A stretch of DNA of 62,682 nt, counting the filler, from Kipferlia bialata (lineage: Eukaryota): assembly GCA_003568945.1 (NCBI GenBank). It is 4 parts of 4 records of this genome, joined end to end, with 100 filler letters (N's around TTAATTAATTAA, not from the genome) between each part and the next. Parts side by side here need not be neighbours in the genome. Positions count along the whole stretch, not along the records: positions 15,712 to 31,319 come from BDIP01000684.1; 3 more parts are not named here. One strand, 5' to 3'. This document shows positions 8,715-61,020 of this stretch, piece by piece. How positions within the stretch are numbered: position 1 is the first letter of the stretch; each line of letters starts with the position of its first letter. A model generated the notes under the pieces. That model had not been told where the DNA came from, searched no databases, and was given only the letters and a program-made list of their open reading frames with translations. The position numbers and the translations under genes are program-made.

Positions 8715-11700
8715 ATGCCTATACCTATGTCGATGCAGGGTGGTGGCAGTGGCACAGGGGTGGGTGTGAAGGACAGGTTGGTGTGGCCATACATGGAGGA
8801 GCCTCCGGTGAGGCCCTGGGGTCAGTGTCCAATACACAATGCTATGTTCTCTCTATATGTATAATCAATCCATATAGTCTTCAAATTACACGGATACATG
8901 GAGGAGCCGCCGGTGAGGCCCTGGGGGTTAGACACTCTCTGTCCCTCATTCTCTGAGAACACACGTAACGTAAATACACAATCTATACCTCCGACCTCTG
9001 ATCGACCCTAATGGATACCGACCTAGAATACTACACATATATACATACAGCAACATACTTCATATATGTATATAAGTGTATAAATACAATCTAAACAGTG
9101 TATACCTCCGATCTCTGGTCCATACTTCATATATGTATATTATATACTAACAGTGTATACATACCTCTGATCTCTGGTCCGTCCCTATGGATGCCGACCT
9201 GAGGATGGAGAAGGCCAGCATCTCACTGCCCCTCTGCTCTTCCTCTTCCTCACGGAGTGCCCTAGGATTAGAGTAGGACAGAAAACATGACCCTCACTCC
9301 TGTGAATGTATAAACACCACGCATACTATATATACACATTGTATCATATATGAACTACCTGACTCCAAACACGTGTGGCAGGTCCCTCACTCTCACCCCA
9401 GTGGCTGTATACATGTATATATGTACAATCAATAATATATATATGTATGTTTATATACCTCACTCCAAACACGTGTGGCAGGTCTCTCACCCTAACCCCC
9501 GTGGCTGCCCTGAGGTATCCATCCAGAGACTGGGTGGTCGTCTCGGAGGATATCCTGGAAGTTAGCGAACTGTACATATATATAGTATTTGCTGTATAAT
9601 ACATATATGCAATCATACAACCTTTCCTATATACACACTATATATACCTGTGGAGTGCCACTGCATGCATCACCGACACCCCGGACAATATGTATGTTGG
9701 ACTACACAGTATACCATATATATAATTAGCATATACTATACAATATGTATATATATATTATACCTGTGCAGTGCCACTGCGTGCATCACTGACACCCCGG
9801 GTGTCCTCAGGAAGCCAGGCACAACAACCAGGAGGTTGAGAAGGCCTGGAGCTCAGAATGATACATTTACATATATATGAATACTGAGAGTCAGAAGGAA
9901 TTACTATATGGGAATTATACAGGTTTCCTTTATACATAAATACACATACATATATATGCACACTGTACCTATGTAGTCCGCCATATTTGATGCCGTGATG
10001 TAGTCACACAATACATATATATATGTATGAATATGGAGTATTATGTATGTATGTATACCAGGAGTAGTATACATCACATACATCCTATATGTACACAATA
10101 ATATACACTCAATCATACCTATATAATCTGCCATGTTTGATGCCGTGAGGTAATACACATAGTATATACAATTAGAAGTAATGTCAGTCTCTACTCATGA
10201 ATATGCATGTATACATATATAGATGTGTGTGTGTGTATCTACCTATATATATTCTGTACCTATGTAGTCTGCCATGTTTGATGCCGTGATGTAGTCATAC
10301 ACAAACACCCTGTCCCTCTTGGCAGGGGCACCCTTGGAGGCATGGGGTGAGTATGATAGTATCACTCTCTAGATTCACCGTCTATACTATGAATATAATA
10401 ATAAAAATATATATAAAAAATACCCTTTCCCTCTTGGCAGAGGTGCGCTTGGAGGCATAAGTTGAGGAGTATAATACATGACACTTCAGACATTACACAC
10501 AGGTACAGTTCATACTAGAAACTGTATACATATACATATATACGCCCATATACCTTAGTGACTGGCGTGTCTGCATAGCAGTGCATGTGGGGGCTGAGAC
10601 TGCGCTCTAGGGGGTGAGAGGGAGTAGAGAAACACATAACACAATATATATATGTGTGTGTGATATACACCTCAAGGGTGAGCGGGATAGACACACAAGG
10701 CACACCATAAGTAACATGTGAATGTGGAAGAGGGAGGTAATATCAGACAGCAGCTAACAGACGATACCAAGACAGCAGAGACACACGCACGCATAGTTAT
10801 ACACATAAAGATACAGTACCTAACAACAACTGCAAGCAGTCCCCTGCCAGCAGTGTGATCTCCACCCTTTCAGATGTATACACTACTATATATACATACA
10901 TATATATAATTACCTAGCAACAGCTGCAGACAGTCTCCAGCCAGCAGTGTGATCTCCACCCTTTCAGATGTCAAGATATATGTACTACTCTACCTATCTG
11001 TCTTCATGTATATACATGTGAGTATACCTAGCAAACACTGGAGACAATCCCCAGCCAGCAGTGTGATTTCCACCCTGCCAGAGGTCAAGATATACACACT
11101 ACTCTATCTATCTATATACATATATATGGTGCAGCTACCTAGTAAGAGCTGTAAGCAGTCCCCAGCGAGCAGTGTGATCTCCACCCTTTCAGATGTCATT
11201 GCAGTGCCCAGGCACTTAAGCCAGGACACAAAGATGGACTAGGATTAGAAGCAAGTACATACATATATACAGAGAGAGAGAGAGAGAGAGAGGAAGGTGT
11301 CATGGCAGTGCCCAGACACTTCAACCAGGACACAAAGATGGACTAGTGTTAGACGTATAGATGTATATGACAAGTTAGAGTCCCACCTCAGCACACTCGA
11401 GGTCTACTATGAGGGATCAGCATCAGTATCTAGGTATATATTATATATTACATACCTCACACTCGAGGTCTGATCTCAGTTTGTGGCTGTCAGTCTTGGA
11501 GGGATAGCCTGGGGGGTGAGACATCAAAGATATTCATGTGTCATAATATGCTGTCCCAAGTCCTCACTCTCTATCTTTCTCCACATATATAGTAATTATA
11601 TATAGAGACACAACAGACATACCTAGGATGGGCTGTGTGCCGTAGTGTGCTGTCCAGAGGGGACCAGTCTCTCTATCTCTCTCTCTCTATTAGCTAATAT

Positions 11701-13451
11701 ATATATATATATACGTATACACATACCAAGGATTGGCTGTGTCCCATAGTGCGCTGTCCAGAGGGGACGGCATGTGAGGGGGCTGTCCAGACACTCCCTG
11801 AGGGTGAGGGTATATCATATATACATATATACACTATTAGTATATAAACACAATAAATATATACATATATTATATAGGTTCGCGAGAGGGCTGTCCAGAC
11901 ACTGTCTGTGGTAGGTGCTACTAGATACATTTAATAGACAGATCAGAAAGTATGTTCTTACATACCATATACCCCAAACTAACTAATTGTACCTATAGTC
12001 CCCTAATCTGTACATGGCTGGCCACTGCATATACATGTATATATATATGTACACACTAATCTTATACTAATTATTCACAATACCCTACCTATAATCCCCC
12101 ACTCTATACATGGTTGGGTTGGCCACGGCATGATCCACTTACACAACACACACACACACATATATATACACATATATATCATATAGTACACATACAATGA
12201 CATACCTATAGTCCCCCACCCTGTACATGGTTGGGTTGGCCACGGCATACTCATCGGGGGCACCGGTGTAGGAGCCGTCAACCACATAGTCAAGCTGCCT
12301 AAGGTTAAGAGTATTACACATATATATATATATACATATATAGAGAGAGAGAGGTAGATGTAAATGTACTGATACCATCAACCACATAGTCAAGCTGTCT
12401 AAGGGTGAACATAGTAGGTATTATATACAGTGTATATATTATATACAGTGTTTGGAATTAGGTCAGATTGGAATGATGCACACAGACGACCTGTCAAAGG
12501 GAGAGTATAGCTGACATACGATATCGCATATTGGAAGCATAGATACTGTGACAACACATCGCATAGTCAAACTGTCTGAGGAGTGAGAGAGAGAGAGAGA
12601 GAGAGAGATAGTCAAACTGTCTGAGGAGTGAGACTGTGATACACACCAATGGTAAAAGAGTGGTAAAAGAGTGGTAAATAGTGATTAAACATACTTCTCC
12701 AATGTCTTCCCGTCCATGCATATCCCCAGTCCCCTCTGGATCAGAGCCTTGGCACACACCCTCAGCTCCTTGCCAAGGGCCGGCATGGACTGGGGTGAGG
12801 TATACAACATAGCAGCTATATATAGTACATGGACTAGAGAGAGAGAGAGATCAGCATACCTTGATGGAGGGTCTGCCGGAGTGGTTGGTCTGGGTCCCGG
12901 TCGAGGCCTAGGGTGACAATGGATATGTGTGTATAATATATACAATATAATATATGTATAGTATAGAGTAATGTGAGACATGTATGCACCATGACGATGG
13001 GAGCAGCAATTGTACCTCATATACATGAGAGATACTACTAGACCAATACTGATACACCTGGTACCGCGCCAAGATACATGTATATATATATATATATACT
13101 TATACATATTCATATATAACTATAGACATTTACCTGGTACCGCGCCAAGTGGACGTCTGTTCTAGAACGGGCACAGCACTGGGAGTTAGAGAAGAGATTC
13201 ACACATTCACCCTAAGAAATACATATATATATGATACCCCCATTACCTTGTTATAGTTGTGTGGCCCTGTCTCTGCCCACAACTGTAGCACAGGCAGTAG
13301 ACAGCATCTCTCTCTCTCTCTCTCCCATAATACATATACAAATATCCATATACCCTACCTTATTGAAGTTCACCGGTCCTGTCTCTGCCCACAGCTGTAG
13401 CACAGGCAGTAACTGCTGGGCGGTGGCCATGCCCATCCTGAAGAGTAAGTG

Positions 13452-15611: not shown

Positions 15612-15711
15612 NNNNNNNNNNNNNNNNNNNNNNNNNNNNNNNNNNNNNNNNNNNNTTAATTAATTAANNNNNNNNNNNNNNNNNNNNNNNNNNNNNNNNN
15701 NNNNNNNNNNN
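15612..15711. other. artificial scaffold-joining spacer (N-run, TTAATTAATTAA, N-run)
   Basis: The same 100-nt block recurs at 31320 and 47014; it has stops in all six frames; flanking segment lengths descend (15611, 15608, 15594, 15569). Confidence 0.97.
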
Positions 15712-27214: not shown

Positions 27215-27299
27215 ACCCCTCCCCTCCCTCTCTTTTCTCTGTTCAGTTGCTTCCCTTCGGCTATTTATATACATGTATATATACAGTATATAGTGTCTC

Positions 27300-27765
27300 T
27301 GACCCCAGGGCACCTCTATCGTGGACTCATGCATATTCAATTAGGGCACTTATGAAATGGAGTATATGTATATGTATCCTTCTGAATGTAATAGTGTCTG
27401 ACCCCAGGGCATCTCCATCGTTCACCCAATAAGAACACATATGTATAAGAGTATGTACAATTACTCCTGAATATGTATATATATGGTGTATGATGCATCT
27501 GACCCCAGGGCACCTCCATCGTTGACACACATGCTTATTCATTTAGTACACATATGATATGGAGTATATGTGATATGGAGTATATGTATATGTACATCAG
27601 CCTATATGTCTGACCCCAGGGCACCTCCATCGTTGACTCCACCCCAGGCACCACAGCAGACACAAAGGTATGGGTATATGTGTATGGTCAGTTATATACA
27701 AAAATATATATATAGAGAGAGAGAGAGAGTATGAATGTACCCCCGGCACCACGGCAGACACTAAG
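27300..27765 (+). repeat. echo array around the HydF G2 exon: three acceptor echoes and one donor echo
   Basis: TCTGACCCCAG|GGCA.. ends at 27308, 27407, 27508 and (full exon) 27619; 3' echo 27739-27765 is followed by GTATGG. Confidence 0.95.
27609..27619 (+). promoter_or_regulatory. representative fused branch point / 3' splice site CT(A/C/G)ACCCC(C)AG
   Basis: Precedes most exons throughout the window on both strands; no separate polypyrimidine tract between branch motif and AG. Confidence 0.85.
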
Positions 27766-28995
27766 GTATGGGTATATATTTGTAATAAGAATAGAGAGAG
27801 AGAGAGATTTCCAATCACAGGTTGCCCTGATGGAGATGCACGGGATGGGCCCAGTCAAGCTGTTCGACACAGCAGGTATGTATATCTATATTGAATATGC
27901 ATTGATGGTTCTGGTATATACAATTGTATCTATAAATATGTATATATGATATATTGCACGGCCCTGTCAAGCTGTTCGACACAGCAGGTATGCCCATGCC
28001 TTAACGATGATATCCATACACATACATATCTATCTGTATGTGTATTCACTCATCTAACCTCATGCCTGACAAGGAGAATAGTGTCTATTATTATTATATA
28101 CTATATAATATACTGTATAATATACTATTATATTTACATTCATTATTATATGTACACTTCACGTACACTACAGTTCTATTATTTCCAAATACTGTTTCTC
28201 ACCCCATGCCTTGACGAGGAGGGTATCCTTGGGAACAAGAAGCATGCCAAGACATACCAGGTATTACAGTGTGTTTAGATATTCACACAGATTCATCGTG
28301 TTATACTGTATGTACATAATATAGTATATATATGATATATTATTAGCAAGAAGCATGCCAAGACATACCAGGTGCCATTTACAAAATTATATTTGACTAC
28401 ATGTGTATACAATAAATGTAACATTCATAGTGATATAGTTGGTACAGGTATATATATGTATTCCACTGGTCACTCACCCGTAGTCCCTTGCCCAGAGTGA
28501 CGTGGCCCTCCTATTATACTAATACCATTTACTAGTGTATATACCATTGAATAGTATATATCAAATTGTTTCTAATCCTCAGTCCCTTGCCCAGAGTGAC
28601 GTGGCCCTCCTGCTAATCTAACATTTATATATACATATGAATATATGTATTATATATGTATTACTATATATAGATACCTCATCTAATCCTCAGTCCCTTG
28701 CCCAGAGTGATGTGGCCCTGCTTCTAGTGGACCCTGCATCAACACCCCCAAGGCAGGGGGACAAGTGTGTGGAGGTATGTATATGTATATATATACAAAT
28801 ATGTATGTATACATATATATATATACCTTGTGGACCCAGCATCCACACCACCCAGACAGGGGGACAAGTGTGTGGAGGTATGTATATATATATGTATATA
28901 TATACAAATATGTATGTATACATATATATATACCTTGTGAACCCAGCATCCACACCCCCAAGGCAGGGGGACAAGTGTGTGGAGGTAAGAATATG

Positions 28996-29031
<36 letters not shown>

Positions 29032-31221
29032 TACTCTGCATCCACACCACCTGTCCTGACATAGTATATATGTGTGTCTCACCTCTCAGTTTGATGTCCT
29101 GTCCCGTGCCAAGAGTGACGGTTAATAATAGTTATATGCTGGGTTATACTCTCTCTCTATATATGTCTCTACACTTTTCAATGTCTCTCTAATCCGTCAG
29201 TTTGATGTCCTGTCCCGTGCCAAGAGTGACGGTGTCCCTGTGGTGGTGGTGTTCAACCACTTTGAGGGCACAACACGGTATGTTCACATATATATATATG
29301 GGCTTCTTAAGTATATATACTTTTTAACACAGGATTATTGTTTAATATATATATACATATATATATGGGTGTTCAACCACTTTGAGGGCACAACGCGGTG
29401 AGTACAGTGTTTCGTTTGTTGTCTACGTATTGTGAATCTATTTTTCATTGGTTAATGTATTTGACCCCCAGTGACTCCTCTGAGGAGTGCTATATCGTCC
29501 TTGCTCTCTGTCTCTCTCTCTCTCTCTTCCTCTCATATATATATGAATATCTCACCCCAGTGACTACTCTACCGAGCACATATCTCTCTCTCTCTCTCTG
29601 TCTCCCCCCATCATCATATATATATATATATATATTATTATATATATATATATACCTCTACCCCTCAGTGACTACTCTGCCGAGTGGTGCCGTGCCCTAG
29701 GTGATTATTATATATATATCAATTATTAATACATATATATATATATTGTCTTTAACATATATAAGTATATCTAACCTTAGTGACTACTCCGATGAGTGGT
29801 ACCATGCCCTGGGTGATTAATACTTATATTTATATATATATATACGATATGTATTAATATATATGTATAATGTCTCTTATATCAGTGACTACTCCGATGA
29901 GTGGTGCCATGCCCTTGGTGTGGGGACAGGGGCAGAGGGGGTCACAGTCATCAAGACAGGTGGGTATATGTCATATACACAGATTAAGAGAGATACCATA
30001 CTGGTGTCATCATTATAGGAATATGAATTGTATATATGAACGCATTACTCACTTCACGATCCCTCTATTATTCTCTCTAATATATATACACCCCTGACCC
30101 CAGACCTGTCCAAGGACGTGGTGGCCCATGAGGTGGTGACTGACATACTGCAGGTATTGTCGATAGTAATATATATAGATACATATATATACATATATCG
30201 ATAGATAGATAGGTATAAACCAGTGTATACTAGTATATGTATGATTATGTGGTGGCCCATGAGGTGGTGACAGACATTCTGCAGGTATTTATGGAGAGTA
30301 GTATATATATATATATATAGATAGATATCAATAGATTGATAGACTACGAGTGTATACTAGTATATATTTAGGTGTGTTGTAGCCCATGAGGTGGTGACTG
30401 ACATACTGCAGGTATCATAATATATATGCCTACTAGTGTATACGCGTTCACTAATATATTGTAATTGGTATGCAACTAGTACCACAATATATATACTTAT
30501 ATACATATACTAATATATATTCTGACCCCCAGGCCACCAAGAAGAAGACCAGGGCCCTGCCACCACTACTGCCAACAAGCATCACAGGTATAGGGAGTCT
30601 ATATTCTCATGTTGTATTGATGTGTATGTATATACACACACTGTCCCTACTGCCCACAAGTATCACAGGTATCGGGTGTATGTATGTACTACCGTTGAGT
30701 TTTATATTATTTGCATATATATGTACGTATTTAGACACTCTGCCACCCCTACTGCCAACAAGCATCACAGGTATAGGGATGTATATACATACCACGGTAT
30801 CGGTAAATATATACGATATGGTAAATATATATACACCCATACTTGATTACTGCGATAGGATACTGTGGTGGGGTCTCTGCCTCTAACAGGTAATCGTCTA
30901 GATAGGCTACTTTTGTGTACGCCTAACCTATATGCAGCAAGGGGTCTGTTGTGCTATAGAAGTATATTAACTAGTATATTCTAACTATTTTGTGTATGTG
31001 TATCTCTCTAACCTATAGGCAACAAGGGCTCTGTTGTGCTCAACATCCCCATGGACGATGAGACACCGGGGTCAAGACTGCTCAGACCTCAGGTATATAT
31101 ACATATATCACTAGCTACTCATGTGCATTTTGACCATATATGTGTATTGCATGTGCCCTCATTCCCAGGCCATGTGTCAGGAGCACCTGCTTGGGAACTT
31201 TGTCACAACGGTGGCATACAG
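27620..31221 (+). CDS. hydF: [FeFe]-hydrogenase H-cluster maturation GTPase HydF (partial: G1 motif and C-terminus missing)
   Basis: Spliced product GTSIVDSTPGTTADTKVALMEMHGMGPVKLFDTAGLDEEGILGNKKHAKTYQSLAQSDVALLLVD...VVLNIPMDDETPGSRLLRPQ matches the HydF G2/G3 motifs and the PxDxxxPxGRLxxPQ motif. Confidence 0.9.
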
Positions 31222-31262
31222 GTGTGGTACATGTACATGTAAATATATATATATGTATATGT

Positions 31263-31319
<57 letters not shown>

Positions 31320-31419
31320 NNNNNNNNNNNNNNNNNNNNNNNNNNNNNNNNNNNNNNNNNNNNTTAATTAATTAANNNNNNNNNNNNNNNNNNNNNNNNN
31401 NNNNNNNNNNNNNNNNNNN
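31320..31419. other. artificial scaffold-joining spacer
   Basis: N-run + TTAATTAATTAA + N-run, 100 nt. Confidence 0.97.
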
Positions 31420-47013: not shown

Positions 47014-47113
47014 NNNNNNNNNNNNNNNNNNNNNNNNNNNNNNNNNNNNNNNNNNNNTTAATTAATTAANNNNNNNNNNNNNNNNNNNNNNNNNNNNNNN
47101 NNNNNNNNNNNNN
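47014..47113. other. artificial scaffold-joining spacer
   Basis: N-run + TTAATTAATTAA + N-run, 100 nt. Confidence 0.97.
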
Positions 47114-59784: not shown

Positions 59785-61020
59785 CTACCTCGTCAAGGTA
59801 TTGATGCTGGGGGATGACTCAGTAGGCAAGTCCAGTCTGCTGACAAGATACGTGGAGGGGAGGTGCGGCATGGTGTTACACAATTTGTGTAGTGTCACCA
59901 TCACTTACTAAGCACACCTTCTCTCTCTCTTCTCTCTTCCCCCCCCCCCCCTATATTGAGTATGTTTCTCCTTTTCCATTTTTCCGTCTACCCCCAGCTT
60001 CCGTCTAGACACTCTCTCCACCATAGGAGTGGACTTCAAGTCCAAGGACGTGGGGGTGGGGAACATGAGGGTTAGGCTGCAGGTAACATACTAAATGATA
60101 ATAGTAGTACATACACTGCAGCATTGAGAAGGGTCAGGCTTCAGGTACCCACAGATCATCTCTCTTACAAGTGGAGTCTCACTTCGTTCTCCCACTCACA
60201 CTCTAGATATGGGACACATCTGGGCAGCAGAGGTACATGAGCATAACAAAGGTATAGACTCTATACCGTATAGAGTCTAGTCTATTTTCATACACTCCCA
60301 TGAAACCTCTCACCCCAAACCTACTTCCGCCTTGTCTCGTGTGTCCTGCTGGTATATGACACATGCAGTAGACAGAGCTTCGACAACCTTGCATACTGGA
60401 GAGAGGTGCTCTCTGCCAATGTCTGTGACCCATCACTCATTCTGCACACGGTACTGGTTGGCACAAAGACAGACAGAGGGGGGGACAGAGAGGTATGGTA
60501 ATGGTGATAAGATAAGGAGAAGGGGCCACTGGCCCCATTTCTATACTTCTGCCACGATAGGAAAGTATCAGTATGCACAGCTAGTTGAACGTAGCTCCCT
60601 CTCATTGATCCTAGGTTTCCACTGAGACTGGTGCTGCATATGCAAAGGAAAATAGCATGATGTATGTTGAGACATCGGCACTGGAGGTAGGGTAGACGTA
60701 TACAACTGGATAGGCAGCGATAACCATGTTCACCATTCACCCTCCAGGGCACCAATGTCTCCTCTGCCTTCCACCCCTTGGCCCATGCAGTGTGTGCAGA
60801 CATAGAGAGTGGGAGAGTGGGGGATGGGGTGTTCACACCCTACCTGGAACACTCAGGTTAGACAGGCCACTTGACACCCGATGACTGGTAATACTGTGTT
60901 GTGGTACTGTGCACAATGCATTACATAAGTTCACAACCCCGCCCCTCACCCCCAGACTCTGAGGGTGGGGCCGTCCACGTAGAAGCGGCGAGGGAAGAGC
61001 GGGTGTCACGATGTTTCTAA
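59785..61020 (+). CDS. Rab-family small GTPase (first exon missing)
   Basis: Exons give YLVKVLMLGDDSVGKSSLLTRY / STIGVDFKSK / IWDTSGQQRYMSITK / TYFR..LLVYD..LVGTKTD / YVETSALE / ...SRCF*; G1-G5 motifs and Rab IGVDF motif present. Confidence 0.9.

Follow-up and report, generated by a model that had tools for sequence, protein, structure and literature searches.

A GT-AT intron within the G3 motif of HydF in Kipferlia bialata, and a second one in an unrelated gene

The window, meaning the whole stretch of DNA that was analysed, comprises 62,682 nucleotides (filler included) of the Kipferlia bialata assembly GCA_003568945.1. It was put together from separate contigs, not genomic neighbours, by means of artificial spacers (N44-TTAATTAATTAA-N44) at 15612-15711, 31320-31419 and 47014-47113. 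One stretch of it matched a single protein, K. bialata KIPB_003536, at 100% identity. HydF (TIGR03918), a GTPase of hydrogenase assembly, was the sole NCBIfam match of this protein; the score of the partial sequence was 36 bits (E 3.4e-9) against a curated cut-off of 325.55, the gene being truncated by the contig end. PF18133 was found in most of the 120 homologues listed, several of which bear the name HydF. A PDB search with a single HydF exon gave a chance match only (E 5.2), one with the partial HydF model gave no match, and a degenerate pattern for the downstream exon had 0 matches in metagenome contigs. HydF exon lengths were 48-81 nt, and the features that concern us are as follows.

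27620..31221, + strand: the 10 exons of the HydF gene that have RNA support; the contig stops at 31319, so that the gene lacks its 3′ part
27821..27875, + strand: upstream exon, 55 nt, absent from the public model KIPB_003536
27876..28207, + strand: GT-AT intron of 332 nt in phase 1, which interrupts the glycine codon of the HydF G3 motif (DTAG); RNA joint 27875>28208
28198..28207, + strand: fused branch-acceptor motif CTCACCCCAT, with the presumed branch A (from the motif) at 28201 and the last intron base at +6 nt
28208..28260, + strand: downstream exon, 53 nt, absent from the public model KIPB_003536

The HydF region was compared with two public sequencing runs, X1 and X2, over 27240-31250. 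Run X2 was taken as RNA by guess, its contigs being spliced where those of the DNA run X1 were unspliced. X1 is possibly the source of the window's assembly, so that a match to it serves as a re-assembly check and not as an independent sample. Both runs derive from one sample and thus supply one line of DNA evidence and one of RNA evidence. The latter consists of a single assembled contig per gene; contig assembly drops minority forms, and contigs may collapse variants.

The preliminary description had proposed the GT-AT intron from the G3 motif, with an upstream exon ending in CAGCAG at 27875 and an intron that opens with GTATG and closes with CTCACCCCAT at 28207. Indeed, an X2 contig (973 nt, depth 3985) skipped exactly 332 bases, joining 27875 to 28208 with GT..AT at the ends. 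Among the 15 joints listed out of 23, the remaining joints of the HydF gene in X2 were GT..AG in 7/7, and none of the HydF joints was present in X1. The G at 28207 that the same description had considered as a possible contradiction was not seen, as an X1 contig (807 nt, depth 402) spanning 27741-28511, unbroken over both exons and the intron, had T at this position and 0 differing letters. The X2 exon pieces listed likewise showed 0 differences from the window. No X2 cover fell inside the intron, which carries no weight on splicing efficiency. A reading of the joint shifted to T..TG fits the letters and was rejected as it requires a TA donor; two-step (nested or recursive) removal was rejected by reasoning from the sequence, since T28207 cannot be removed with canonical ends. 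It is almost certain that the HydF intron is genuinely removed at GT and AT.

The RNA-defined exons formed a single open frame through DTAGLDEEG, as had been proposed. The D, T and G of G3 were invariant in 101/101 aligned HydF homologues (those with ≤520 residues, out of the 120 listed), and the GT-AT product aligned with them without gaps, DTxG in register. Twelve alternative AGs between 27881 and 28258 were tested, and 11 of them led to an early stop, among them the AG at 28173 and all five downstream AGs. To this extent the claim that no nearby AG is usable was borne out; it does not extend to the AG at 28081, 126 nt upstream, which is in frame and open. Splicing at 28081 would add 42 low-complexity residues at the cost of the G3 glycine, and this AG was unused by the X2 contig. 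Exon skipping and intron retention both gave early stops. The GT-AT product scored 197.9 bits in one domain; the 28081 form reached 176.5 bits, split in two, and a skip of two exons resembling the public model 107.9 bits. The public model lacks G3 because the two flanking exons were dropped. It also seems to take an echo exon at 27398-27445 (+), and its N-terminus differs from the RNA contig. The upstream 81 letters of the X2 HydF contig match nothing in 27240-31250.

A second site ending in the same motif was found in the window.

10342..10553, - strand: second GT-AT intron, 212 nt, phase 0, ending CTCACCCCAT, in the unrelated gene KIPB_003532 on another contig

As the window consists of separate contigs joined by spacers, this intron is an independent locus. 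Its acceptor was predicted from the sequence motif before the RNA comparison, and the evidence at this site comes from run X2. An X2 contig (2203 nt, depth 106) skipped 212 bases at the joint 10340>10553, which, shifted by 1, reads GT..AT on the minus strand. The other joints in this region of X2 were GT-AG in 6/6 listed, four joints at repeats being left out. The AT acceptor has an in-frame AG on either side, 27 nt upstream and 9 nt downstream, and both were bypassed in the RNA contig; the public model KIPB_003532 takes the upstream AG and gains nine residues. Because both alternative AGs keep the frame, decay of faulty or frameshifted messages cannot explain the choice of AT. A scan that starts at the branch and stops at the first AG would select the one at +9 and therefore fails to explain it as well. 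KIPB_003532 (1270 aa) had only a weak F-box-like Pfam match (E 0.045). In the same region, the donor at 12694 (-) is RNA-supported with exonic GAA in place of the usual AG.

The donors of the two introns, GTATGT and GTATAT, resemble those of neighbouring GT-AG introns and are of the usual major (U2-type) kind. The branch motif is CTCAC with the last intron base at +6, and 28 further sites with this motif have AG at the end. By the features expected of major-type introns, the usual donor, the branch motif and precise removal were all found and the 3′ AG was absent, which makes these introns a non-canonical variant. A count of CT(A/C/G)ACCCCAH acceptors, suggested earlier for the whole genome, was run on the window. 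Its 32 occurrences of CT[ACG]ACCCCA were followed by G in 28, T in two, C in one and A in one; both T-ending sites are RNA-supported acceptors. From these counts the HydF site is the usual fused branch-acceptor with its last base altered. GCC follows both AT sites and likewise 3/16 canonical RNA-supported acceptors, so it is nothing special.

A strict census of motif sites gave 107 ending in AG, dead echoes being counted among them and weak motifs being missed; once 11 non-G candidates had been filtered out, 19 remained on the list. Seventeen of the 19 were judged by eye, mostly without an RNA test, to be antisense, exonic or intronic, the plus-strand site at 60318 being the least clear. A looser census (75 AG, 41 non-G candidates) was discarded as too noisy. 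The proposal that the final G is dispensable was thus overstated: 107 motif sites keep G, two RNA-supported sites have T, and no RNA-supported AC or AA was found. U is the only base seen to replace G at -1. The GT-AT rate was 2/109 motif sites (95% interval 0.2-6.5%), or 1/108 (0.02-5%) with the ascertained site removed. GT-AT introns perhaps make up ~1% of introns, an estimate from two sites, one of them ascertained, with a wide interval.

Distances were taken from 18 RNA-supported introns, 15 from the joint tables and three via piece coordinates, in regions picked for holding candidates. From the presumed branch A to the last intron base there were 6 nt in nine introns, 7 in seven and 8 in one, the eighteenth being without an assignment. 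Both GT-AT introns have a distance of 6, and their next AG lies 15 and 17 nt from the branch. At unconstrained motif sites running from intron to exon, the first AG ended 6-8 nt past the branch A in 56/84, against 18% under the null, with a few sites at 4-5 and 9-10. The idea that the acceptor is set by distance from the branch motif was upheld as a window of 6-8 nt, most clearly at the second intron, and not as a single fixed number. With the branch A presumed from the motif, an acceptor set by distance is probable.

Diverged copies of splice-site regions, here called echoes, lie inside both introns.

27955..28012, + strand: echo 1, in which diverged copies of the upstream exon's end and the downstream exon's start flank a 10-nt GT..AT remnant (27988-27997)
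28054..28076, + strand: echo 2, in which the acceptor (CTAACCTCAT) and the start of the exon recur in diverged form
10422..10466, - strand: echo of the second acceptor, also ending in AT (CTCAACTTAT)

The echo ATs at 27996-27997 and 28062-28063 are where they had been reported. AT was present in 3/3 echoes of AT acceptors, and AG was kept in 12/13 echoes of AG acceptors. As the AT echoes all end in AT and have diverged elsewhere, the T likely predates them or was copied along. At 30923-30940 (+), an echo of the canonical acceptor of 31018 has AT in place of AG; a G-to-T change can thus occur in a dead copy, which shows one way for AG to become AT. The remnant at 27988-27997, set between copies of both flanking exon ends, is what is left of a copy of the entire intron that has lost its body, and is unused by the RNA contig.

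We propose that the HydF intron, one of at least two of its kind in the organism, is cut by an ordinary major-type spliceosome that places the 3′ cut by branch distance and makes no search for AG; we give this reading a probability of about two in three. The branch motif and the following donor would together mark out the short exon, and branching would proceed without recognition of an AG. The active site could then be reached only by bases 6-8 nt beyond the branch A, and whatever YAN is present at that distance could dock. CAU would dock where no AG lies at 6-8 nt, the contact of A(-2) being kept and the G(+1):G(-1) pair replaced by G(+1):U(-1), as proposed for yeast HAU sites. For the latter, a G+1:U-1 pair has been proposed, with an account of why C or A would fit less well (PMC10711555); U as the sole substitute seen here is consistent with that account. 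In yeast, HAU sites were activated without Prp18p, a prp22 allele increased the use of a CAU site, and Prp18p and Slu7p were dispensable when the branch distance was short (PMC10711555). In Giardia and Trichomonas the spacing of branch and acceptor is strict, and a shift of the branch abolished splicing (PMC6679479).

A more speculative step is that loss or divergence of U2AF35 and of Prp22 proofreading would make AT efficient as a main form, so that such introns would recur genome-wide. In K. bialata, U2AF35, SF1, Prp22 and all eight U11/U12 proteins were not detected, and U2AF65, Prp8, Prp16, Prp18 and Slu7 were detected (PMC6679479, Additional file 9); the same study found no snRNA candidates in the species. 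The non-detections come from a fragmented predicted proteome, and Prp22 scores 0 in three diplomonads too (PMC6679479). The presence of Prp18 and Slu7, fidelity factors in yeast, speaks against the proposal, and the link to lost proofreading is speculative and the weakest step of the mechanism. In its fullest form the reading would be one of obligatory GT-AT introns numbering of the order of a thousand (~1% of ~125,000) and hidden by gene prediction limited to GT-AG. A major spliceosome that had lost U2AF35, its reader of AG, and Prp22, its proofreader of exon ligation, would remove them as the main form with a ruler of 6-8 nt from the branch A. This extension is possible and rather doubtful; if true, it would be a natural, genome-scale counterpart of the yeast fidelity mutants.

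Among the alternatives, the introns may be real and placed by branch distance and yet be isolated accidents that any major spliceosome working at a short distance would tolerate, with no lineage-wide class and the machinery unchanged. Rare U2-type non-AG ends do occur elsewhere, with 99 candidates in five model species and a GT-AT intron in DGCR2 (PMC1557818); when the ascertained site is removed, the rate has a lower 95% bound of 0.02%, and the detection of Prp18 and Slu7 also fits this view. Isolated accidents would not lead one to expect a second case within 62 kb, on another contig, with an identical acceptor that the sequence had predicted ahead of the RNA comparison, nor an AT acceptor that beats nearby in-frame AGs. 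We regard this explanation as unlikely.

Transcripts supplied by a hidden G allele or paralogue, or pre-mRNA edited to AG before splicing, are very unlikely. Contigs can collapse variants, spliced RNA hides the intron bases, and the DNA contig evidence is from the HydF site. Against a hidden copy, no other letters were listed, one unbroken 807-nt DNA contig covers the HydF exons and intron, and the listed RNA exon pieces have 0 differences; AT stands in 3/3 echoes, and two loci would both need the same allele or editing event. The U-to-G conversion that editing would require is not known as an established activity.

The evidence comes from assembled contigs, and the junction could have arisen artificially during reverse transcription or assembly; alternatively, the introns could be copies of a mobile element that brings its own ends. 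Microhomology at the junction was 1 nt at both GT-AT sites, and the end duplexes (-2.3 and -12.7 kcal/mol) were near those of four control introns (-7.0 to -11.2 kcal/mol); an artefact would hardly restore the invariant G3 residue. The likeness between the two introns ranked 86 of 153 intron pairs, i.e. they are unrelated, and no full copies of either were found within the window. A family of introners or transposon-derived introns was rejected on the same grounds, and both versions are highly improbable.

The minor class of introns is defined in part by the donor consensus GTATCCTT. A U12-type identity, to which GT-AT as a productive pair (four human and three mouse cases, PMC1557818) and strict branch spacing would point, is largely refuted by donors that resemble their neighbours and have three and four mismatches to the eight positions of the consensus RTATCCTT, and by 0/8 U11/U12 proteins detected in K. 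bialata (PMC6679479). The HydF intron behaves like a fused-branch major intron with a CAU acceptor in the style of yeast mutants, and is neither a minor intron nor an introner.

Non-GT-AG pairs amount to ~2% in total across kingdoms (PMC7072748). The earlier treatment of non-AG ends as almost confined to AC needs qualification, GT-AT being on record in mammals (PMC1557818) and for a Giardia candidate (PMC10711314). The mammalian cases comprise seven U12-type introns in human and mouse and, among 99 non-AG candidates, a U2-type intron conserved in human and mouse DGCR2 (PMC1557818). Like the GT-AT introns of DGCR2, DEADC1 and SLC24A6, those of Kipferlia have ends that are used in normal transcripts. 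Mammalian GT-AT introns are mostly U12-type, and the 99 U2 non-AG candidates, found among more than half a million sites, have polypyrimidine tracts (PMC1557818), whereas the Kipferlia introns show no U12 signature and no long tract and have a fused branch.

Closer likenesses are found in Giardia, Spironucleus and Trichomonas, which share the GTATG-type donor, the CT[A/G]AC-type branch fused to the 3′ end and the tight spacing (PMC6679479; PMC10711314). These organisms have few introns, and those that have been verified end in AG (PMC6679479; PMC10711314), whereas Kipferlia is intron-rich. One GT-AT and one CT-AT candidate are listed for Giardia (PMC6679479; PMC10711314), the former spliced in 1.3% of reads (PMC10711314); the Kipferlia AT end, in contrast, is the assembled main form and is required for a conserved enzyme motif. 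The cryptic HAU (CAU) sites of yeast prp18 and prp22 mutants share CAU with a G donor and the preference for U over C or A at -1, but are low-level, poly(U)-dependent errors of mutants (PMC10711555), whereas the Kipferlia sites are apparently wild-type main sites. In Fritillaria borealis, too, the major spliceosome takes non-AG 3′ ends, with U2AF implicated; there 95% of introns escape GT/AG and the U2AF subunits are duplicated (PMC13326754), whereas in Kipferlia nearly all introns are GT-AG, the donors are canonical and U2AF35 was not detected.

The accessible text of the Kipferlia genome paper describes AUGUSTUS models with 124,912 GU-AG introns and mentions no other kinds (PMC5874029). No report of GT-AT or other non-AG introns in Kipferlia was found in a literature search outside most subscription journals. 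GT-AT introns are already known elsewhere as rarities; what is new here is AT as the main form without a detected minor spliceosome. How 3′ splice sites are chosen and proofread is an open question that has mostly been addressed through yeast mutants, and a wild free-living protist with ~125,000 introns and CAU as a main acceptor is a natural data set for it. Existing RNA and DNA reads could yield the rate, the allowed branch distances and whether only U substitutes for G. For annotation, the HydF model lost two exons and G3, and KIPB_003532 gained nine false residues; introns ending in AT would silently distort a reference fornicate proteome.

The introns in 27240-31250 (+) and 8750-12950 (-) are rich in decoy echoes, which copy almost perfectly either a branch motif, AG and exon start or an exon end and GT donor. 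The RNA-supported introns use the first donor and the last acceptor and skip the inner copies, and 8/18 of them hold a strong inner branch motif with YAG. Such a pattern points to exon definition of a strict kind, and to growth of these introns through tandem duplication of their splice-site regions. The acceptor CTCTTATATCAG of the intron at 29278-29885 (+) is RNA-supported and has no clear branch motif, and three upstream echoes within that intron have better ones.
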